Positions 4,747-53,449 of a stretch of 64,000 bases of DNA are shown here, one piece after another. Under the pieces are notes generated by a model. That model was not told the origin of the DNA. It ran no database searches and saw nothing but the letters and a program-made list of their open reading frames with translations. The DNA lies in IMG/VR virus record IMGVR_UViG_3300002835_000041, positions 1-64,000 of that record; one strand, written 5' to 3'. The stretch comes from a virus. Made by a program: the position numbers and the translations under genes. The first letter of the stretch is position 1; each line of letters begins with the position of its first letter.

Positions 4747-4780
4747 AGGCTCAATCCTTCGGGGTTGGGCCTTTCTGTTT
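4747..4780 (+). terminator. Intrinsic terminator after the major tail gene
   Basis: AGGCTCAATCC-TTCG-GGGTTGGGCCT, then TTCTGTTT. C(UUCG)G tetraloop. Confidence 0.85.
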
Positions 4781-4794
4781 GGTATACTTATACA
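4780..4794 (+). promoter_or_regulatory. Extended -10 promoter, leaderless (TGGTATACT-6 nt-ATG)
   Basis: TATACT at 4783-4788, ATG at 4795, no SD. Confidence 0.7.
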
Positions 4795-5475
4795 ATGGCA
4801 ACAAAAATATATGACACAAAAAAAATATCATTAGTGGATGATAGGGTCATTATTGCTGCACCTTTAAAAATAAAATATTTAAGACAATTTTTAGAAACCT
4901 TTGAAACTATTAAGCAGGCAAAAACTGATGATGAGTCTATATCTGTGTTAGCCGAATGCGCTCTCATTGCAATGCAACAGTACTGCCCTTCAATCAAAAC
5001 AATAGAAGAGTTAGAGGACAGTTTGGATCTACCAACCATTTATGAAGTTATAGATATTGCAGCGGGAATTAAAATTAATGAGAAGTCAGAAGATACTGTT
5101 AAAAACCAGGCAGTAGATAGCGGATCAACCTGGGATACATTAGATTTGGCAAAACTAGAATCAGAGGTTTTTTTATTGGGGATCTGGAAAGACTATGATG
5201 AGTTAGAGTCGTCCATATCTATGCAAGAGTTAACTGCAACCTTAAAAATAAAAAGAGAGTTAGACTATAGTGATAAAAAGTTTTCTGCTGCAATGCAAGG
5301 AGTAGATTTAGACAAAAACTCTGGCAGTGGAAATGAATGGGAAGAGATGAAGGCCAGAGTCTTTAGCAAAGGGGCAACTGAAAATGCAAATGACATTCTT
5401 GCTTTGCAGGGCGTAAATGCTGAAAAGGCTGGTTTTGGAATAGGGCAAGGCCTTGATTACGAAGTTTATGAATAG
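4795..5475 (+). CDS. Tail assembly chaperone, fused long (GT-like) form
   Basis: The N-terminal ~100 aa are paralogous to 5531..5857. The C-terminal W..LDLAKLESEVFLLGIWKDYDELE region is T-like. Located between the tail tube and TMP genes. Confidence 0.75.
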   Translation: MATKIYDTKKISLVDDRVIIAAPLKIKYLRQFLETFETIKQAKTDDESISVLAECALIAMQQYCPSIKTIEELEDSLDLPTIYEVIDIAAGIKINEKSEDTVKNQAVDSGSTWDTLDLAKLESEVFLLGIWKDYDELESSISMQELTATLKIKRELDYSDKKFSAAMQGVDLDKNSGSGNEWEEMKARVFSKGATENANDILALQGVNAEKAGFGIGQGLDYEVYE

Positions 5476-5530: not shown

Positions 5531-5857
5531 ATGGCAACTGCCACAACAGAAGAAAAGACAGTAACACTGATCGACGGTACAAAGATCAAAGTAAGACCAC
5601 TTAAAATCTCATTGCTTCGTCCATTTATGAAGAAGTTTGAGGATATTGCAAAGGTCGCAGAAGATAACGAAAAGTCTATGGATTTGCTAATGGACTGTGT
5701 TCAAATCGCAATGAAGCAATACAAGCCAGAATTGGCAGAAGACAAGGAAGCCCTAGAAGAAAACCTAGACCTTCCAACAGTATACAAGATTGTCGAAGAG
5801 GCATCAGGAATTAAACTTTCTGACGCATCACTACTTGGCAGCCTTGCAAATAACTAA
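5531..5857 (+). CDS. Tail assembly chaperone, short (G-like) form
   Basis: 108 aa directly before the TMP; motifs PLKISLLRPF and LDLPTVY. Confidence 0.8.
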   Translation: MATATTEEKTVTLIDGTKIKVRPLKISLLRPFMKKFEDIAKVAEDNEKSMDLLMDCVQIAMKQYKPELAEDKEALEENLDLPTVYKIVEEASGIKLSDASLLGSLANN

Positions 5858-5875: not shown

Positions 5876-8800
5876 ATGGCTGATGTAGAATCCAATATTC
5901 ATGTAAATATTGATACGTCTGATGCTTTAGCAAGTCTAAAACTTCTGCAACGTCAAATATCAGCCTTCCATACACAAATGGCCAAGTCTGGCACTGCTGC
6001 AGCAGCGGTGGCAGCAAATCAAGCCCAGAACTTGATAAACAGCATAAATGCTACTGGACAATTCCAAGCATCAATGCGATCAGTAACATCAAGCACAGAG
6101 CAGTTTACTGACTCTTTAGAAAGAAATAAACTAACATCAAGAGAGTATTTTAGATACACTGGCGCTGCAACAAAAACATTTGGTAGATTATTTAGAACCG
6201 AATTTGACACAATCAACAAGGTTGCACGAGAGCGTGTAAAGGATATCCAGACCCAGTATATTAAACTAGGTCGTGGTGCAAATGGATCCTTGCAGGCAAT
6301 TGCAGTAAGACCTCTAACTCTAGATATGAAAAATCTTGGCACACAGACTGCCATTGCTGCACAAAGACAGCAACTGCTTAATCAACTTTTAAAGCAAGGC
6401 TCAACAAACCTCCTAAACTTTGGTAAGAATACTCAGTGGGCTGGTCGTCAGTTGATGGTTGGTTTTACAGTTCCTCTAGCAATGCTTGGAACAACCGCTT
6501 CAAAAACCTTCATGAAACTTGAAGAGCAGGCCATTAGATTTAAGCGTGTGTATGGAGAACTCTTTACAACACAAGAAGAAACTGAGCAAATGGTTAAGCA
6601 GATTCAACTGCTTGCAAAAGAATATACTAAGTATGGCGTAGCCGTAGAAGATACGATGAAGATGGCTGCAGATGCAGCAGCAATGGGTAAGATGGGTGCA
6701 GACCTAACTGCACAGGTTGCACAAGCAACTCGTCTTGCAGTTCTTGGCGGGGTAGAACAGACTCAGGCTTTAGAAACAACAATCTCGGTAACAAATGCGT
6801 TTGGTGTTGCAACAGAGGATCTTGCTAAAAAGATTGACTTTCTTAACGCAGTTGAAAACCAAACTGTTGTATCTATTGAGGATTTGACAATAGCAATGCC
6901 AAAGGCTGGCCCTGTTGTTCAGCAACTTGGTGGACAGGTTGAGGACCTAGCATTCTTCCTTACTGCTATGAAAGAAGGTGGAATTAATGCATCAGAAGGC
7001 GCTAACGCACTTAAGTCTGGCCTTGCTTCGTTAATTAATCCATCTGAAAAAGCATCAAAGTTTTTAGCAAGTCTTGGCGTAAATATAAAAGGAATTGTAG
7101 AAGGCAACAAAGGCGACGTTAAAAGCACCGTTATTGATTTTGCAAACGCACTAGACACTTTAGATCCTCTTAATCGTGCTCGTGCTATTGAGCAATTGTT
7201 TGGCAAGTTTCAGTTTTCAAGACTTTCAACATTATTTCAAAACGTAATAGGTGAGGGCACCCAGGCAGCAAGAGTTCTTAAACTAACAAATGCAACAACA
7301 GAAGAACTAGCAATTTTATCTGAGCGAGAATTAAGCAAGATTCAAAATACAACAACATATAAGTTTAAAAAGTCTATGGAAGATCTAAAGGTTGCAATTG
7401 CTCCTGTGGGAGAGCAGTTCTTAAAAGCACTTACACCCATTGTTGAATTTGTTGGAAAAATACTTGACAAGTTCAATAATCTTGGAGATGGTAGTAAAAA
7501 GTTTTTGACTATATTTACAGTTGCTGTAGCAGGAGTTGGTCCAATTCTTCTTATGACATTTGGTTTGATTGCAAATGCTGTTGCTAACATAATTAAATTA
7601 TTTGCAGGAATGAAGTCTATGTACAACAAGACTGGATCAGCAAGCAAGGTTTTGGGGGATCAAACAAACTATCTAACTAAAGAACAGTTAGAAGCCTCAG
7701 CAGTAGCAGCATCTCTTGATCAAGTACACACTAAACTTAAGCAAACTTTTACATCTGAAGCATCAGCAGTTAACATGCTGGCCAATGCATATAGAAGAGC
7801 CATTGCAGCACAGTTAGGATTTACAGGAGTTCCTGCTGGTAAGAGCATGCCCAAACTTAAATATTCTAAAGGAACAACAAGCGTTCCAGGACTTGGCAAT
7901 AAAGATACTGTGTCTGCAGACTTAACTCCTGGAGAAGCAGTAATTCCTCAAAAATCAGCACAAGATCCAGCGAACAGACCCTATATCGCACATATGGTTG
8001 CAGGTGGAAGAATTCCAGGATTATCAAATGCCCCTGAACTAACAGAAACAAAAGACAAAAAGCAAGTACAGATGAGCGAAACCCACGTAGGTGGTAAAAG
8101 CGAACCAAGACTAATATCAGATATAATAGCGGCTCATCCAGAGATGACCGATAACCAAAGATTAAAACTTATAACTATGCAACAGGTTCTTTTGTCACAG
8201 GGATTACCACCAGTGACAACAACCAAACACGGATTAATGTTTGACTTCCCTCTAGAGATTAATAAAAGAATGTATGGAGATGGAATACCAAAGGGAGAGT
8301 TTATAAATGAATGGTTAAAAGATGGAGCAGGAAAGTGGCACCCATCTGGACTAACTCCAGTTCAAGCACAAGCATTAGATGATGCTTTTTTAAATGCTGT
8401 AAAAGAATCTAGTGCAAAAAATGTTAATGATGATTTATTGAAAAAAATATTTGAAGAAGAGATTCCTAAAAAAATAAGTCCAAATGATCCAGGGTATCAA
8501 AGAGCAAAAACACTATACGTAACAGATTTTAGATTTAATATGGGTCAAGGATTAGGAACTACCCCAGAAACTAGCGCAGCAATACTAGAAAAAGCAAAGA
8601 CAACAATAGACCCAGCAACTGGTAAGCCTTACATTGCAGATTACGATATTAGAACTAGGTTCTCAGAAAGTCAGGGCAAGGTAGTAACATCTTCTGGAAC
8701 CGTAACACTTAATCCAGGAATATACAACGGGTTTGAAATTAAAGAGCCAACAACTGTAAACATGAACAGACTTGGAGCAGGAACAACACCAACCTTCTCT

Positions 8801-11800
8801 AAGAAAAAAGATTCTCAAAGTACAAAATCATCAGCAAAAACAAAAACACCAGTCCCCCTAGAGGTCCCAAAATTAGTTGATCTTGAAAAGGCAATGGAGC
8901 ACAAAGAAAAACTAAGAGCCGTTGCCATTGAAGCATCTCAAACTACCTATGGTGCAAAGAAGCCAACAAACTTTGGTGTTCAAGAAACACAAAGTTCTGG
9001 CCGAAGCAACTTTATGTCTACTATTGGTGGAGTGTATACAAAGCCAGATGGTTCAAAGGTATTTGTAAAACCAATGCTAAGCGAGTTAGATGCAATAGCA
9101 GAACAAAGAGCCACAAGGATTGCAAGAGATGTTCATGGACTGGTAGCACCAAAACAAAAAATCACAACAATGATTGACCCTACAGACATCGACGAGCCAG
9201 ATGTTAATAAGAAGAGAAAAGTTATTGTATTGGAATCTCCATTTGATCCAAGGTTTGATCCAGACACAATGCCAAAGACATTTACTCCAAGAGAATACGT
9301 AAAGCAACTAGTTGCTTCAAGTCTTCGTGCAGATAAAGATCTAAAGAAGGGCAACCTTGGAGGCAAAGTATTAGCCGATGTAGGAGCAGCAGGTGTATTT
9401 GATAAGGCATCTGGAACAAGATCTTATTCAGCAGGACTGCCATCGATGGAAGATATAGCAATGCACAACCTAAAGGGTGTTCCAGGACCAAATGCTAATG
9501 CATCACCTTTCTGGTTTGGAAATGCTACAGCAGATATTCCTCAAGGGATTAAGTCTGCAGATCAGTATGAAAAAGCAATAACAGATGAGATTAAAAAAAC
9601 GCTTCCAAAATTAAGAAAGACTATAGACAGTTTTAAACTTGCCGATGATGATCCAGCCAAAAAGGTTTATGAGGACATGTACAAGAGACTTGAGGCTGGC
9701 CTAAATGCAAACTGGAAGAAGGTTTATCATTTCCATCGATCAATCTTGGTAAAACCAGACGAAGTACTTCAAGATAAAACTGGCAACATTAAGCCAATCC
9801 CTACTGAACCAAATACTGTAAACTTAAAATCAACTTCTGGGAAAATAGACGATAGCAGGCTTGCTCCAAAAAGCGTAGCCAGCGCAGTTCGTCAAGGACC
9901 TAAAGGAAGAATTGTTGGAAAAGCAGATGCTCCACATATTAATATTTCAGAACAAGATCTTGCTCGCAACCATCCAAGAGGTATAAAGAGACTTGCAGAT
10001 CCAGCAGGGGCAGTTGTTGCTGGAGCAAAAGCATCTATTGCAGAAGCAAAAGCAGTTGGAAGTACAATTGGAACAACATTGTCTCAGTCTGCTGCAGCAG
10101 CATCTAGAACTCTTCTTTATGGAACTGGTCCTATAGATGCAGAAGCAAAGTCAATTCGTCGTAGACTAGAAAAAGAAGCAACCCCTAGATTCCAAAAAGA
10201 AAAGAAATTAAAAGAATCACAAGCAAAAGCAGCAGTTTCAAGAACCACTCTTTACGGATCTGGACCTATCGATGCAGATGCCAAGTCTTTGCGTAGACAA
10301 ATGGAAAAAAGAAGTAGGCTTGCTGAGCGAGTAGCCTACGAACAAAGAGTCATTAGTGAAAAAGCAGCCAAAGCAGCACAGGCACAAATGCCTATGCTTG
10401 GACCAAACAGACCAACACTTTATGATAAAACAGTAGGCACCGCTGCTGCAAAAGTTAGAACTAGCAAGGTTGCCGAAAACCTTAGAGGGTTTAAGGGTGC
10501 AGAAAGTAAGACAGGATATTTACGTGATAAGGTTGCAGGAAGAACACCAGGAGCAGGTATGGGCGGAGCGATGGGTGTCGCTTCTGGTGTAGCAATGATT
10601 GGATCTATGGCCCCAGGAAAAGTTGGAGAAATTTCACAAAAGATAATGATGCCACTTATGGGTATGGCAATGATTATGCCAATGCTTCAAAACAAGTTCT
10701 CAGCACTTGCAGTAGGAGTTGGATTAGTTGTAGCAGCATATGCTTATCAGAGAATGGTATTTGATAAAGCACAAGATGCAGCAATGGAACTTACAGAGGC
10801 TATGGGCTCTGGAACAAAGGCAATTAAGTCACTCTCTGAGTTTTCAACAAAAGTTGGTGCTGGAGAGATTATGGACAGAAGAAGAAAAGAGGCATTCTCT
10901 CCTTTCCAAATTAAAACAGGAAAAACGACATTTGGTCAATCTTTCGTCGCAAGCGAAGGTGGAAAAGCCATGGCAAAAAATGTTACAGAAACTATTAAGG
11001 CTGGCGGAGAAAATGGAAAGGCTATTGCTAAAGATCAGGTTGCTAATCAACTAATGACGGCAGTTGCGTCAGGAGCACTAGATCCAGCCCAAGCAAGATC
11101 TATCGCAGCAAACCTTGGAGAGCAACTTGGAGACTATTCTTTTGGAATCGAAATAAACTCAAAACTTATTTCAATGCTTGGCCCAAATGGAGAAAATATT
11201 CTTAAGGATGGGGTAGAACTTGAGGTAAAACTTTTACAAGACACAAGAGCCAAAATGAATCTTGCATCTACTGCAGCAAGAGATGCTGGAGGCTGGACTG
11301 GTAAGGATGTTGGAAAGAGTGCTGGGTATAGCATTGGAGGAGCAGCAGCAGGAGCAGGCGCAGGTTTTGTTGCTGCAGGTATCGGTGCAGCAGGTGCAGC
11401 AGCAGCAGGTGCAGCCGTAGGCTCTGCGGTACCAGTTGTAGGAACTATTATTGGAGCAGCACTAGGTGCAGGCGTTGGCTACTTCTTGGCAAAGAAAGAT
11501 AGAAATAAAAGAATAGGTGAGGCATCTGGTGCATCTATTGCTATGCAGAAAATTGCTTTACAGCAACAACAAGAATTAAATGACTCTGTAGAACTACGTT
11601 ATCAAAAAGAACTTGAAATTGCTAAGGCTAAAGGTGACCAGGTTGCAATTGATAAACTTACAGAACAATATGAAGAAGATCAACTTTCTTTGCTTGCTGA
11701 AAATGCAGCATTAGTTACTGATATTCAAAATAGTTATGCTAATGCTGAGGGTGCAACCAAGAGTGCATTAATGACAGGAGCAGATAAAGCAATAACAAAG

Positions 11801-14800
11801 CAGTATGCTGGTACTGCATTAGAAGACGTGGCTGTATTAGCAAAATCAAATATAGATAGTTCTGGCGTTTCAAAAGAAATGCAGTATACATTAAAAATGC
11901 AAATGGCAAGTGGACAGATAGATCCAATGCAAATGATTGAAATATTTGATAAATTTGGCAATGACAAGGCTTCAATGGAAGGTGTTGTTTCTATTATTGG
12001 TAAGTTTGGTGGAGCATTTGCAAATGATGTAATGGGAATTGTTAGCATGTTTAAAGATGAAAAACAAGCAGCAGATTTTGTTGCTAGAATTAAAACTAAG
12101 ACTCCTGATGAAGCAAAGAAAGAACTAGAACTATTCCAAAGAATTAGTCAATCTGCAACAGTGGTAGACAAAGATATTTTATTAAACTATTATAACAAAA
12201 ATCCTGATGCAGCAGATGAACTTAAAACAGCCTTTGCAGCAATTGACGATATTAAGGGAAAGGCCACAATTGATATAGTAGCAAAGACAGAGGTTTTTGG
12301 TGCTGAAGAAATGGCATTGCTAAAAGCAGACCAGGAGTACTTTGACAAACTGCCAGCAGAACAACAAAAGGTTTATTTGCAAAACATGAAGGTAATGATG
12401 AGTATGGAAGGCGATCCAGCAATGAAACTAGCCTACCAAAACTGGTTGGCAGAAAAGGGTGCAGATGGAAAAACACCAAATGCTGGAAAGAGTTTTTCAG
12501 ATTACGTTACTTCTAAAACTCAGCAAGTCACAGAAACTTCTACCGACACTTCAAAAACACCACCTGGCGGAGGCGGAGGCGGAGGAAGCAAAGTTCAGTC
12601 TTCACCATTAGACGATCTGGTAAAGAAACTTAGGGATGTAAGAAAGAACCAGATTAAGGTCACAGAGGGCTGGAGTGCCTCTCGTAAGGCTTTAGACGGC
12701 CTATTTGGGGGTAAGAAGACACTTGATGCTTTTAGCGGTATAGAAAATGATTTAAGAAAAATAGGAGGAAGTGAAGATCTTATTTCTCTTATAGTTGGCA
12801 TGGATCCCAAAGAGTATGAGAAGAAGAAGAACTCCTTGTTTAAGTTTGATAATAAGGGTAACATTATTGGATTAAAGAAAGATGCCAAAAATATCCAAGA
12901 GGCTCTAAACTCAGTAGCCATGGGAGACTTTAATTCAAAAACAGAAGCAGAAACTGAGGTCATTAAAGATCAAGCAGTAGCCTTTGCCAAGTTATCTTCC
13001 ATAGGAATTCCAGTTGCAGATGCTTACGCAATGGTTGAAGACGCTGGACTTGCACAGGCGATTGCTATGGAAAAAAATTCAAAATCAGTTGCTACTTTAG
13101 CAAAGAATTATAAGGTATTAACTAAAGCACAACTTGAGGCTGCAGCAGTCAAGGGAGTCAAGACAGATATAGATCAATTTAAAAAAGACAGAATTCAAGA
13201 AAGCAGAATTAGAAACAAATACAGTTCAGCAACTGCCTTTGCAATTGGATCAGATGAAAATCTTAGAGCCCTAGAAGATGCAATAGCAACCAAAGAAAAA
13301 GAAGTAAGTGATCTACGATCAAGAGGCAAATACGATGCAGCCTATGACGCTCAACAATCATTAAATAAGTTAACCAATGACTTTAACACAAGGCTTTCTC
13401 AGTTAAAGAGCACTATTGGTTTTATGCAGGATATGTTTGATAAAGGTTTTAGCAACGCAATGGAGGCTTTTGATGTTCAAGAGACTGCTCTTAATATAAA
13501 GTTTAAATTAGATACAAAGTCACAAGATGATGTAATGAAAAAGGCACAAGAAGAGATTGCATTAATTCAGTATAAGGTTGATGATAAAGAGGCAGCGCTT
13601 AAGGCTATCGAAGATCAAGAACAAAAGATTAACGATAAATATGATGAAAGAATTAAGGCTCTTGATGAAGTTGAAAAAGCAAATGCTGCTATTTCTAATC
13701 AGCAAAGAGGTCAACTAACTCTTGCAGAGGCTTTAACATCTGGAGACATTGCTGCAGCAGCAAGAGCAGCACAAGATATGAGAGCACAGCAGGCTGCTGA
13801 TGCTGTAACAAAACAAAAAGACGCTATAGAGCAATCTAGAGAGTACGAGTTGATGGGTGTAACTGGTCTTGATAAGACTGATGGTAAACTTAAAACTAGA
13901 AAACAACTTGAAAAAGAAATTAAAAATTTGCAAGACGAAATATTTAAAATTGAAGAAGACAGAATTGAACCAGCACAAGAGTTTGTTCGACTGAAACAAC
14001 TGCAGTTAGACAAAGATATTCAAAACCTTACCGTACTTGGAAAGACAAGAGATGCTTGGGAATCAATAAAGAATCAAGTAGACCTTGCTATGATTAATAG
14101 CAAAAAGTTTATAGAATCAATGCAACTTGCTATAGCAACTGTTCCTGATTTAAAGGCAGCATACGCTGCCGAAACAGCAAGTGGAAATGACCCAATTGTA
14201 GGTGCTGCTTATGAACCTACACCAACACCTTCAGCAACCCCAACACCTTCAGCAACCCCAACACCATCGGCGACACCAACTCCTACTCCAACACCTTCTT
14301 CAACACCTAAAGCATCCGCAACACCAACACCAGCACCAAGTGTAAAGCCAAGTGTAAAGCCAAGTGCAACACCAACACCAACAGTAAAGCCAAGTGTAAA
14401 GCCAAGTGCAACACCAACACCAACACCAACAAAAGTTCCTGGATTTGTCTATAACCCAGACCCAAATGGTTTTAAACGTAATGTAACACCAACACCAACG
14501 CCAACTCCAAAACCAAGTTTCTTGGATGCAGATAAAAATGGAATACCAGATCTTATTCAGGCTCCACCAAAGGCAGTAGTTAAACCTATTTTGCCACCAC
14601 TTTTGCCACCTGTAGCCCCTAAGAAAACTCTTGTTCCAGGAACTGGTACCTATGTTGGAAGCATGTTTATTCCTCCACAGTATAAGTCTATGGGAGGACT
14701 AATTAAGTATTTTGCAGGTGGTGGCTTTGCTAAGGGTACAGACACAGTTCCAGCAATGCTTACCCCTGGTGAGTTTGTCATGAGTAAATATGCTGTTGAT

Positions 14801-14995
14801 TCTTACGGGGTAGACAATCTTAAGAAGATAAATAATGGTGATGTAACTAGCGGGACAGTGTATAATAATACATATACATTAACAGTTAATGCTAAGACAG
14901 ATGCTAATCCAAATGAAATTGCACAGGCAGTAATGTCAACAATCAAGCAGGTAGACGACAGAAGAATTAGGGGGATTGGAATAAATGGCAGATAG
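5876..14995 (+). CDS. Tape measure protein (3039 aa) with internal cargo domains
   Basis: N-terminal TP901-type TMP core (AIRFKRVYG, EGANALKSGLASLINPS), long helical and coiled-coil regions, Gly/Ala hydrophobic segments, C-terminal GTDTVPAMLTPGEFV motif. Position after the chaperones. Confidence 0.92.
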   Translation: MADVESNIHVNIDTSDALASLKLLQRQISAFHTQMAKSGTAAAAVAANQAQNLINSINATGQFQASMRSVTSSTEQFTDSLERNKLTSREYFRYTGAATKTFGRLFRTEFDTINKVARERVKDIQTQYIKLGRGANGSLQAIAVRPLTLDMKNLGTQTAIAAQRQQLLNQLLKQGSTNLLNFGKNTQWAGRQLMVGFTVPLAMLGTTASKTFMKLEEQAIRFKRVYGELFTTQEETEQMVKQIQLLAKEYTKYGVAVEDTMKMAADAAAMGKMGADLTAQVAQATRLAVLGGVEQTQALETTISVTNAFGVATEDLAKKIDFLNAVENQTVVSIEDLTIAMPKAGPVVQQLGGQVEDLAFFLTAMKEGGINASEGANALKSGLASLINPSEKASKFLASLGVNIKGIVEGNKGDVKSTVIDFANALDTLDPLNRARAIEQLFGKFQFSRLSTLFQNVIGEGTQAARVLKLTNATTEELAILSERELSKIQNTTTYKFKKSMEDLKVAIAPVGEQFLKALTPIVEFVGKILDKFNNLGDGSKKFLTIFTVAVAGVGPILLMTFGLIANAVANIIKLFAGMKSMYNKTGSASKVLGDQTNYLTKEQLEASAVAASLDQVHTKLKQTFTSEASAVNMLANAYRRAIAAQLGFTGVPAGKSMPKLKYSKGTTSVPGLGNKDTVSADLTPGEAVIPQKSAQDPANRPYIAHMVAGGRIPGLSNAPELTETKDKKQVQMSETHVGGKSEPRLISDIIAAHPEMTDNQRLKLITMQQVLLSQGLPPVTTTKHGLMFDFPLEINKRMYGDGIPKGEFINEWLKDGAGKWHPSGLTPVQAQALDDAFLNAVKESSAKNVNDDLLKKIFEEEIPKKISPNDPGYQRAKTLYVTDFRFNMGQGLGTTPETSAAILEKAKTTIDPATGKPYIADYDIRTRFSESQGKVVTSSGTVTLNPGIYNGFEIKEPTTVNMNRLGAGTTPTFSKKKDSQSTKSSAKTKTPVPLEVPKLVDLEKAMEHKEKLRAVAIEASQTTYGAKKPTNFGVQETQSSGRSNFMSTIGGVYTKPDGSKVFVKPMLSELDAIAEQRATRIARDVHGLVAPKQKITTMIDPTDIDEPDVNKKRKVIVLESPFDPRFDPDTMPKTFTPREYVKQLVASSLRADKDLKKGNLGGKVLADVGAAGVFDKASGTRSYSAGLPSMEDIAMHNLKGVPGPNANASPFWFGNATADIPQGIKSADQYEKAITDEIKKTLPKLRKTIDSFKLADDDPAKKVYEDMYKRLEAGLNANWKKVYHFHRSILVKPDEVLQDKTGNIKPIPTEPNTVNLKSTSGKIDDSRLAPKSVASAVRQGPKGRIVGKADAPHINISEQDLARNHPRGIKRLADPAGAVVAGAKASIAEAKAVGSTIGTTLSQSAAAASRTLLYGTGPIDAEAKSIRRRLEKEATPRFQKEKKLKESQAKAAVSRTTLYGSGPIDADAKSLRRQMEKRSRLAERVAYEQRVISEKAAKAAQAQMPMLGPNRPTLYDKTVGTAAAKVRTSKVAENLRGFKGAESKTGYLRDKVAGRTPGAGMGGAMGVASGVAMIGSMAPGKVGEISQKIMMPLMGMAMIMPMLQNKFSALAVGVGLVVAAYAYQRMVFDKAQDAAMELTEAMGSGTKAIKSLSEFSTKVGAGEIMDRRRKEAFSPFQIKTGKTTFGQSFVASEGGKAMAKNVTETIKAGGENGKAIAKDQVANQLMTAVASGALDPAQARSIAANLGEQLGDYSFGIEINSKLISMLGPNGENILKDGVELEVKLLQDTRAKMNLASTAARDAGGWTGKDVGKSAGYSIGGAAAGAGAGFVAAGIGAAGAAAAGAAVGSAVPVVGTIIGAALGAGVGYFLAKKDRNKRIGEASGASIAMQKIALQQQQELNDSVELRYQKELEIAKAKGDQVAIDKLTEQYEEDQLSLLAENAALVTDIQNSYANAEGATKSALMTGADKAITKQYAGTALEDVAVLAKSNIDSSGVSKEMQYTLKMQMASGQIDPMQMIEIFDKFGNDKASMEGVVSIIGKFGGAFANDVMGIVSMFKDEKQAADFVARIKTKTPDEAKKELELFQRISQSATVVDKDILLNYYNKNPDAADELKTAFAAIDDIKGKATIDIVAKTEVFGAEEMALLKADQEYFDKLPAEQQKVYLQNMKVMMSMEGDPAMKLAYQNWLAEKGADGKTPNAGKSFSDYVTSKTQQVTETSTDTSKTPPGGGGGGGSKVQSSPLDDLVKKLRDVRKNQIKVTEGWSASRKALDGLFGGKKTLDAFSGIENDLRKIGGSEDLISLIVGMDPKEYEKKKNSLFKFDNKGNIIGLKKDAKNIQEALNSVAMGDFNSKTEAETEVIKDQAVAFAKLSSIGIPVADAYAMVEDAGLAQAIAMEKNSKSVATLAKNYKVLTKAQLEAAAVKGVKTDIDQFKKDRIQESRIRNKYSSATAFAIGSDENLRALEDAIATKEKEVSDLRSRGKYDAAYDAQQSLNKLTNDFNTRLSQLKSTIGFMQDMFDKGFSNAMEAFDVQETALNIKFKLDTKSQDDVMKKAQEEIALIQYKVDDKEAALKAIEDQEQKINDKYDERIKALDEVEKANAAISNQQRGQLTLAEALTSGDIAAAARAAQDMRAQQAADAVTKQKDAIEQSREYELMGVTGLDKTDGKLKTRKQLEKEIKNLQDEIFKIEEDRIEPAQEFVRLKQLQLDKDIQNLTVLGKTRDAWESIKNQVDLAMINSKKFIESMQLAIATVPDLKAAYAAETASGNDPIVGAAYEPTPTPSATPTPSATPTPSATPTPTPTPSSTPKASATPTPAPSVKPSVKPSATPTPTVKPSVKPSATPTPTPTKVPGFVYNPDPNGFKRNVTPTPTPTPKPSFLDADKNGIPDLIQAPPKAVVKPILPPLLPPVAPKKTLVPGTGTYVGSMFIPPQYKSMGGLIKYFAGGGFAKGTDTVPAMLTPGEFVMSKYAVDSYGVDNLKKINNGDVTSGTVYNNTYTLTVNAKTDANPNEIAQAVMSTIKQVDDRRIRGIGINGR
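14216..14515 (+). repeat. Pro/Thr-rich tandem repeats in the TMP (TPSATP, PSVK, PT units)
   Basis: Direct nucleotide repeats ACACCTTCAGCAACCCCA and CCAAGTGTAAAG; translation PTPTPSATPTPSATP... Confidence 0.9.
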
Positions 14996-53167: not shown

Positions 53168-53449
53168 TTGAATAAATTTAAATGGAAAGACAACGCTGTT
53201 TGTTTAGATTATGACACAAATTTATTCTTTGACAAATATGAAGATGATGAAATACTAAGGCCAGCAATAGATGCTTTATGCTTTTCCTGCCCAGTAAGAA
53301 AAGAATGTTTTTCTGTTGGAATTTCAGGTAAAGAGTGGGGTGTTTGGGGCGGGGTATACTTAGAAAATGGAGAGATATCAAAAGAATTCTCTAGCCACAA
53401 GAGTAAAAATGACTGGGGAATGACATGGCAATCATTAACAATGGAGTAA
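53168..53449 (+). CDS. whiB: WhiB-family Fe-S transcription factor
   Basis: Four Cys (C...C-x2-C-x5-C: CFSCPVRKEC), LFF and GVWGG turn. Confidence 0.93.
   Translation: MNKFKWKDNAVCLDYDTNLFFDKYEDDEILRPAIDALCFSCPVRKECFSVGISGKEWGVWGGVYLENGEISKEFSSHKSKNDWGMTWQSLTME

Follow-up and report, generated by a model that had tools for sequence, protein, structure and literature searches.

A predicted atypical kinase domain within the giant tape measure proteins of freshwater phages

Does the tape measure protein (TMP) of a freshwater phage carry a kinase and, if it does, where and upon what would such an enzyme act? The question is posed by positions 1 to 64,000 of the IMG/VR virus record IMGVR_UViG_3300002835_000041 (this whole stretch of 64,000 nucleotides is hereafter the window), in which the largest open reading frame (ORF) is a TMP gene. 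A first-pass annotation made from the letters of the sequence had placed a protein-kinase-like domain inside this protein and had proposed that the kinase, whether of Ser/Thr, HipA or PI3/4K-like type, is carried by the virion and acts at the moment of injection. The domain is here confidently predicted, by structural modeling, to have an atypical kinase fold of the protein-kinase-like (PKL) superfamily. That superfamily of enzymes is already known; what is new is the sequence family and the context of the domain, and no report of a kinase within a tape measure protein was found in the literature searched.

Fold and catalytic residues of the domain

The protein that houses the domain is matched by Pfam PF10145 PhageMin_Tail at residues 247-443 (E 3.6e-25) and by 11 PHROG tape-measure families, nearly all within its first ~650 residues, the best being phrog_10030 (E 3.6e-98; the PHROG TMP matches span residues 8-654). 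All six motifs named in the first-pass annotation lie where it had put them, in the frame of this ORF. The domain likewise lies inside the TMP, as had been stated, but it begins upstream of the proposed start at 9000, at about nucleotide 8930, with its first strand at residues 1035-1039. The gene, the domain and its motifs, all on the plus strand, are as follows.

5876-14995, plus strand: TMP gene, one ORF of 3039 aa, recognized from its single open frame, PF10145, the PHROG TMP families and the gene neighborhood
8930-9757, plus strand: predicted atypical protein-kinase-like domain, TMP residues ~1019-1294, ~280 aa
9020-9037, plus strand: TIGGVY, from residue 1049
9059-9070, plus strand: VFVK, from residue 1062
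9068-9070, plus strand: K1065 (in VFVKP), putative beta3 ATP-binding lysine, at the end of strand 1061-1066
9092-9112, plus strand: AIAEQRA, from residue 1073
9101-9103, plus strand: E1076, putative helix-C glutamate, within helix 1070-1085
9221-9244, plus strand: VIVLESPF, from residue 1116
9326-9355, plus strand: putative catalytic loop R1151-A-D1153-K-D1155-L-K-K-G-N1160, assigned from model and conservation
9338-9355, plus strand: DLKKGN, from residue 1155
9371-9385, plus strand: LADVG, from residue 1166
9377-9385, plus strand: D1168-V-G1170, putative equivalent of the metal-binding DFG, after a short beta hairpin in the model

Predicted by AlphaFold2 (AF2) from its single sequence, the domain shows no confident fold (predicted local distance difference test, pLDDT, 39.7). 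Given an alignment of 45 non-redundant sequences of the domain (36-92% identity), which came from metagenome fragments and IMG/VR loci, AF2 returns without templates a model with a mean pLDDT of 90.7 and a predicted template modeling score (pTM) of 0.90, in which the elements of secondary structure follow the canonical kinase order.

Residues 1035-1039: beta1
Residues 1052-1055: beta2
Residues 1061-1066: beta3, ending in K1065
Residues 1070-1085: helix C, containing E1076
Residues 1095-1100: beta4
Residues 1115-1122: beta5 and hinge
Residues 1138-1150: helix E
Residues 1151-1160: catalytic loop, then a tight beta6/beta7 hairpin and D1168-V-G1170

The helical C-lobe is complete (helices at model residues 176-273), and the predicted whole has the character of the PKL fold, bilobal, with helix C in a beta-sheet N-lobe, a hinge and the helical C-lobe. 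The residues expected of that superfamily are also in place, namely the beta3 Lys, the helix-C Glu, a catalytic loop of the form D-x4-N and, after it, a metal-binding D-x-G. When the model is compared by VIA-align with 48,161 PDB representatives, kinases occupy 50 of the 50 rows listed. CotH heads them (5jda; Z 11.6, 215 aa at 4.2 A), followed by PI4KII-alpha (Z 10.1), MavQ (9.8), Fam20C and CtkA (both 9.3), Vps34 (9.0), HipT (8.5), actin-fragmin kinase (8.2) and HipA (8.0); RIO, Bud32, APH and the eukaryotic protein kinases (ePKs) score about 6-7, and small-molecule kinases stand lower, with APH(2'') at ~6 and YihE at 6.4. Foldseek has CtkA as its top PDB match (E 7e-4), and a re-examination of its top 1000 chains agrees with VIA-align in finding kinases. 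The nearest folds span both protein kinases (CotH, CtkA, HipA, Fam20C) and lipid kinases (PI4KII, MavQ, Vps34). Further, the sole named family among the nearest clusters of an ESM Atlas feature search is LepB_N, a Legionella lipid-kinase domain (0.94), which serves as a lead only. The kinase-like fold expected by the first-pass annotation is thus what prediction returns, and no other fold emerges. In its predicted fold the domain is near the kinase types that the annotation had suggested, HipA/CtkA and PI3K/PI4K (and also CotH), and no HipA or PF00454 sequence match was found.

Conservation was counted in an alignment of 265 homologues (29-92% identity) guided by a hidden Markov model (HMM). 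Within it K1065 is conserved in 248/248 sequences, E1076 in 252/252, D1155 in 259/260 (a single substitution), and N1160 and D1168 each in 259/259, with G1170 close behind (256/259) and R1151 and D1153 both at 252/260. The annotation had tied its proposal to the conservation of these residues among homologues, and that conservation holds: the K/E/D/N/D set is essentially invariant, which, at the level of sequence, points to selection on catalysis. The kinase core is also a local peak of conservation, with identities of 0.62-0.71 in 15 full-length relatives as against ~0.40 upstream and 0.37 downstream. The conserved form of the loop is R-x-D-K-D-L-x-x-x-N, which sits in a family signature R-x-D-K-D-L-x3-N-L-x-G-x3-D-x-G-x2-G-V-x3-A-S-G.

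Some details of the earlier motif assignments change. D1155 and N1160 of the supposed DLKxxN are conserved, but K1157 varies (K/G/S/Q/A), and the likeness to the ePK motif is therefore accidental at that position. TIGGVY, read before as a Gly-rich loop, is present but forms the beginning of beta2, and the position of the loop itself has a conserved G1042-x-S1044-F. The spacing between the Asn and the Asp had rightly been seen as shorter than canonical. It measures 8 residues (N1160-D1168) as compared with 13 in PKA (N171 to D184), because the beta6/beta7 hairpin is minimal.

A sequence family and its nearest known systems

What kind of kinase this might be is not given away by sequence profiles. 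Pfam and PHROGs yield no match in a 500-aa segment spanning the domain; elsewhere in the TMP they recognize only the N-terminal core and a glycine zipper. PDB sequences are not matched by the domain, whether as a single sequence or as a profile, and hhalign finds no match to Escherichia coli HipA. The ePK family is represented in the domain neither by its PF00069 HMM nor by GxGxxG and HRD...DFG...APE motifs.

The domain is nevertheless far from solitary. An exhaustive phmmer search of 1.84 billion cluster representatives (E <= 0.001) gives 158 clusters at 50% identity, 119 of them at E <= 1e-30 and nearly all proteins of 2000-4400 aa, and a word-indexed search gives 429 clusters at 90% identity (1671-5319 aa), which their named sources label TP901-family tape measure proteins. 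Every full-length family member is a giant TMP. A stand-alone form of the kinase was considered and rejected, as matches under ~1000 aa have one end within the domain or open with the internal TMP motif, and look like truncated ORFs. Cultured phages (50,697 INPHARED records) have no tblastn match to the domain, and a pattern scan of 185,579 prokaryotic species genomes found no relative, a pattern-limited result that is no proof of absence. The stretch itself is contained in 24 metagenome runs from freshwater or lake water (2016-2024), 20 of which may be the source of this DNA. Judged by such comparisons, the domain defines a new sequence family, in which the full-length proteins are all giant TMPs from freshwater phages.

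The structural neighbors differ from the TMP domain as follows. CotH (Bacillus cereus, 5jda/5jd9, PF08757) has 9% sequence identity to it and is a stand-alone spore-coat kinase, whereas the TMP domain is part of a putative virion protein; the PF08757 HMM finds no match anywhere in the genome, the domain included. The PI3K/PI4K-type lipid kinases (PI4KII-alpha 4hnd, Vps34, MavQ 7m7a and LepB_N) have a DRHxxN loop and ~13 or more residues from Asn to Asp, whereas the TMP domain lacks the histidine of that loop, has a spacing of 8 and is not matched by the PF00454 PI3_PI4_kinase HMM. The Ser/Thr kinases HipA, HipT and CtkA belong to a group whose HipA Pfam models likewise do not match.

Among viral structures, a Foldseek search of BFVD gives 9 matches at E <= 0.001 (E 9e-6 to 6e-4, probability 0.99-1.00), and 8 of the 9 are large phage proteins. 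Their annotations include an ADP-ribosyltransferase (Mycobacterium phage Onyinye), an HK97 portal and a 'PI3K/PI4K catalytic domain', and with them comes an uncharacterized 1100-aa protein of HHTV-1. The latter, gp13 of this Haloarcula virus, a haloarchaeal siphovirus (L097:9436-12738), adjoins a MuF-like head gene in the head module and is not a TMP. Compared by hhalign with gp13 and three relatives, the kinase family aligns collinearly over 93 columns that run from beta2 as far as the catalytic loop (E 0.0035, probability 9%), with the pairings VFVKP/VFEKQ, LAE/LAE, VLES/LVEG and LRGDKDLxxGNL/LTGNRDIHGGNF; K1065 is paired with K549 of gp13, and the TMP catalytic loop with N-R-D-I-H-G-G-N. 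This profile match is statistically weak, and it agrees with the structural match and the residue assignments. The two differ in that D-I-H-G-G-N of gp13 is followed by a D-N-G motif 13 residues past the Asn, as against the 8 of the TMP domain. gp13 itself has 'NPALHPRGPDGKF' as an N-terminal motif, and further a kinase-like region (VFEK, LAE, RDIHGGN, VDNG) together with a zincin-like HEMQH (HExxH); it has no Pfam match, and only three relatives among 5.8 billion protein clusters.

Enzymes associated with virion proteins are not without precedent. The T5 protein Pb2 is a TMP with an embedded enzymatic motif. The TMP of mycobacteriophage TM4 has a peptidoglycan-hydrolase motif, an instance of a TMP-embedded enzyme that aids infection (PMC1796659). 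As is proposed for the kinase TMP, these modules of TM4 and T5 lie within a TMP and are thought to be active during genome delivery, but their target is the cell wall, outside the membrane, and they need no ATP, whereas for a kinase a cytoplasmic site of action is implied. gp13 and the other BFVD models are grouped here with kinase domains in large 'polyvalent' proteins from the head modules of tailed viruses. Polyvalent proteins are enzymes fused to proteins of the virion module and thought to be injected (PMC5512222). The polyvalent kinases described in that account are without the whole C-terminal subdomain, have a Glu before strand 2 and carry an insert between the catalytic His and the Asp, and tape measure proteins are not mentioned in that account (PMC5512222). 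They constitute a different group, as the TMP domain has a full C-lobe and no catalytic His. Phage T7 gp0.7, like the kinase proposed here, is a host-directed phage kinase, but it is made after DNA entry, is no component of the virion and belongs to a different kinase family. PMC5512222 cites the gp0.7-type kinases as enzymes that modify host proteins at an early stage of infection.

Architecture of the protein and its phage

Further features of the protein, all on the plus strand, are these.

7496-7606, plus strand: hydrophobic transmembrane-like stretch upstream of the kinase domain, residues 541-577 (Kyte-Doolittle scan)
7889-7951, plus strand: internal copy of the C-terminal 'DTV...LTPGE' motif, residues 672-692
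8093-8875, plus strand: variable insert domain of ~260 aa between that motif and the kinase domain, residues ~740-1000
10100-10306, plus strand: SRTxLYGxGPxDAxAKSxRR motif in two copies, residues 1409-1432 and 1454-1477, ~100 aa past the kinase domain
11363-11491, plus strand: glycine-zipper hydrophobic stretch downstream of the kinase domain, residues 1830-1872 (hydropathy)
14726-14788, plus strand: C-terminal TMP motif 'DTVPAMLTPGEFV', residues 2951-2971, a conserved block

Most full-length relatives have an equivalent of the first hydrophobic stretch at the same position, and in 183 of the 202 full-length relatives the kinase domain has a hydrophobic stretch before it and one or more after it. 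The downstream stretch of the present TMP is matched by Pfam Gly-zipper_Omp at E 2.8e-4, below the family cut-off. Between the two, residues 1559-1629 (window 10550-10762) form a hydrophobic stretch rich in Met, Gly and Ala, mostly below the hydropathy threshold, which may be a further membrane-active segment.

The upstream copy of DTV...LTPGE is present in 137/202 full-length relatives. Its distance from the kinase domain is bimodal, either ~60-67 aa or ~310-335 aa, which suggests that many relatives are without the ~260-aa insert; the phage described here belongs to the second group. The insert looks globular and is poorly conserved, has no Pfam or PHROG match, and finds as its nearest ESM Atlas clusters only unnamed viral proteins. 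One or two copies of SRTxLYGxGPxDAxAKSxRR occur in 64 of the 202 relatives, at a median of 99 aa past the domain end, and may serve for docking, as a substrate or for processing. A complex prediction of the kinase domain with the segment bearing the LYGxGP repeats scores 0.01, which speaks neither for nor against binding. Near the C-terminus, residues 2780-2882 (window 14213-14521) are a long low-complexity linker rich in Pro, Thr and Ser, with PTPTPSATP-type repeats, and this region is hardly conserved among relatives.

In one metagenome fragment (P0246/L096; L096:561-1127) a second kinase-like domain comes directly after the first. Its motifs are N-I-D-T-H-P-G-N and D-L-G, Pfam PI3_PI4_kinase matches it below threshold (E 0.008), and the TMP concerned would carry tandem kinase domains. 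An hhalign comparison of the kinase family with this second domain gives only a non-significant match in helix C, and tblastn against phages gives none.

The neighborhood of the gene is that of a tail module. On its 5' side lie genes for a virion structural protein, a head-tail adaptor-like protein, an Ig-domain protein and two chaperone-like phrog_10504 proteins, and on its 3' side a small tail gene is followed by one for a 1473-aa minor tail protein; a family HMM, a very long ORF, tail chaperone-like genes upstream and tail-tip genes downstream are thus all found, as befits a TMP. The phrog_10504 genes adjoin one another directly upstream of the TMP gene (window 4765-5475 and 5531-5857; E ~6e-21 and 8e-21), the longer with an extra C-terminal part matching phrog_10474, and the pair looks like tail assembly chaperones encoded as two genes with no frameshift. 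Within the TMP gene, ~50-bp stretches at window 6422-6477 match TMP genes of several Streptomyces phages, Faust and Coruscant among them, at 92-96% identity. They are the sole nucleotide-level matches to cultured phages (megablast, first 20 kb), and represent what is, by this comparison, a conserved TMP core motif common to actinophages.

The phage genome is a 118,981-bp IMG/VR record with 38% G+C and a CheckV estimate of 100% completeness. A WhiB-family protein is encoded at window 53183-53356 (gene entry 53168-53449; PF02467, E 2.6e-12, above the cut-off), and among 14 control genomes only Corynebacterium matches PF02467. WhiB is typical of Actinobacteria and their phages. Taken with the lake origin and the low G+C, the WhiB gene suggests that the host is a freshwater actinobacterium, with a single membrane.

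Delivery at entry and its alternatives

Where, then, would the kinase act? The reading of the domain as a virion-delivered atypical TMP kinase, catalytically competent and acting upon the host at entry, is held here in even balance. Its parts differ in weight: the domain is probably an active phosphotransferase, while its carriage in the virion and action on the host at genome delivery, a reasonable inference, would be put level with doubt or a shade below it. In such a scheme the TMP would be stored in the tail lumen, largely unfolded around the kinase domain, and would be expelled upon adsorption, with its flanking hydrophobic stretches inserting in the host cytoplasmic membrane. The domain would refold at the cytoplasmic face and would use host ATP to phosphorylate a membrane-proximal host target prior to any phage gene expression, the target being either a protein (of defense, envelope or signaling) or a lipid, for example actinobacterial phosphatidylinositol. 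Delivery is favored because the domain is fused to the protein that is first out of the tail, because hydrophobic segments on either side could anchor it at the membrane, and because TMP-embedded enzymes that aid infection have precedent (PMC1796659).

A narrower form of this proposal, in which the TMP delivers a membrane-tethered PI-kinase-like lipid kinase that phosphorylates phosphatidylinositol or another inner-leaflet lipid at the entry site, is improbable in itself. The local remodeling of the membrane that it envisages might open or stabilize the DNA channel, or might blind membrane-linked defenses. Phosphatidylinositol is a lipid typical of Actinobacteria, and in such a host it would be an attractive candidate substrate. 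Such an enzyme, if real, would be the first phage lipid kinase and the first phage tail-core enzyme shown active on the cytoplasmic side.

Several considerations weigh against delivery of an active kinase. At ~32 kDa and in at least three copies, the folded domain should be too big for a tail lumen of ~4 nm, and it must therefore be stored unfolded or removed; the internal LTPGE motif could mark where processing occurs. ATP is confined to the cytoplasm, which the domain would need to reach. The kinase assignment rests on predicted structure and motifs, no sequence profile linking the domain to a characterized kinase. Further, the short Asn-to-Asp spacing is out of the ordinary, and the lysine of the ePK 'DLK' and the histidine of the PI3K 'DxH' are either absent or variable.

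Some of these same facts lend themselves to other explanations. An active kinase might work in the producing cell, late in infection, on the TMP itself (for example its LYGxGP repeats or its Pro/Thr-rich linker), on the tail chaperones or on host proteins, and might also control TMP folding or tail loading. The cytoplasm in which the TMP is made before assembly is rich in ATP and the domain can fold there, in contrast to a tail lumen too small for it; the conserved motif ~100 aa downstream in 64/202 relatives contains Ser, Thr and Tyr, and two chaperone-like genes lie directly upstream of the TMP gene. However, no TMP is known to need phosphorylation for assembly, a position between hydrophobic stretches fits a role after membrane insertion better, and the first-ejected protein is an odd choice of fusion partner for an enzyme needed only late. 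A producing-cell kinase is accordingly given a minor share of belief, enough to be taken seriously. The fold could instead support other nucleotide-dependent chemistry, such as AMPylation, glutamylation or the phosphorylation of sugars or small molecules, or a nucleotide-binding switch without transfer to a host target. SelO, SidJ and NiRAN are precedents within the kinase fold, small-molecule kinases do appear among the fold matches at lower Z, and the active-site spacing is unusual; yet the residues of phosphotransfer are all invariant, among them the catalytic-base Asp, which precedes the Asn by five residues, and the top fold matches are true protein or lipid kinases. Such chemistry is thus unlikely.

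A pseudokinase, that is, a structural, spacer or host-binding module of the TMP with the fold and without catalysis, would sit easily in a protein class that tolerates large insertions, and parts of the present TMP are indeed variable. Pseudokinases, however, usually lose at least one of K, D, N and D, and the invariance of all five residues, with the one exception at D1155, across sequences as far apart as 29% identity makes this explanation very improbable. That a non-globular TMP segment resembles a kinase by chance might have been supposed from the failed single-sequence prediction and from the want of a Pfam match, but this is scarcely credible and was ruled out by the confident alignment-based model, the exclusively kinase fold matches and the conservation of the motif residues.

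The implications of a virion-delivered kinase would reach beyond one phage. The enzymatic modules known so far in TMPs are cell-wall hydrolases that act outside the membrane, whereas an apparently intact kinase needs ATP, which implies the entry of some portion of the TMP into the cytoplasm, where it would refold and be at work before phage gene expression. If that is true, the tail core would be an effector-delivery device besides a ruler and a conduit, and phages of this family may bring an already synthesized kinase to the membrane of the host. Since the family is large, recurs in lake metagenomes and has no Pfam or PHROG model, the gap in annotation is real. More broadly, the domain offers a handle on the fate of TMP segments once ejected: TMP topology would be read out directly by any kinase-dependent phosphorylation of targets in the cytoplasm or the inner leaflet.

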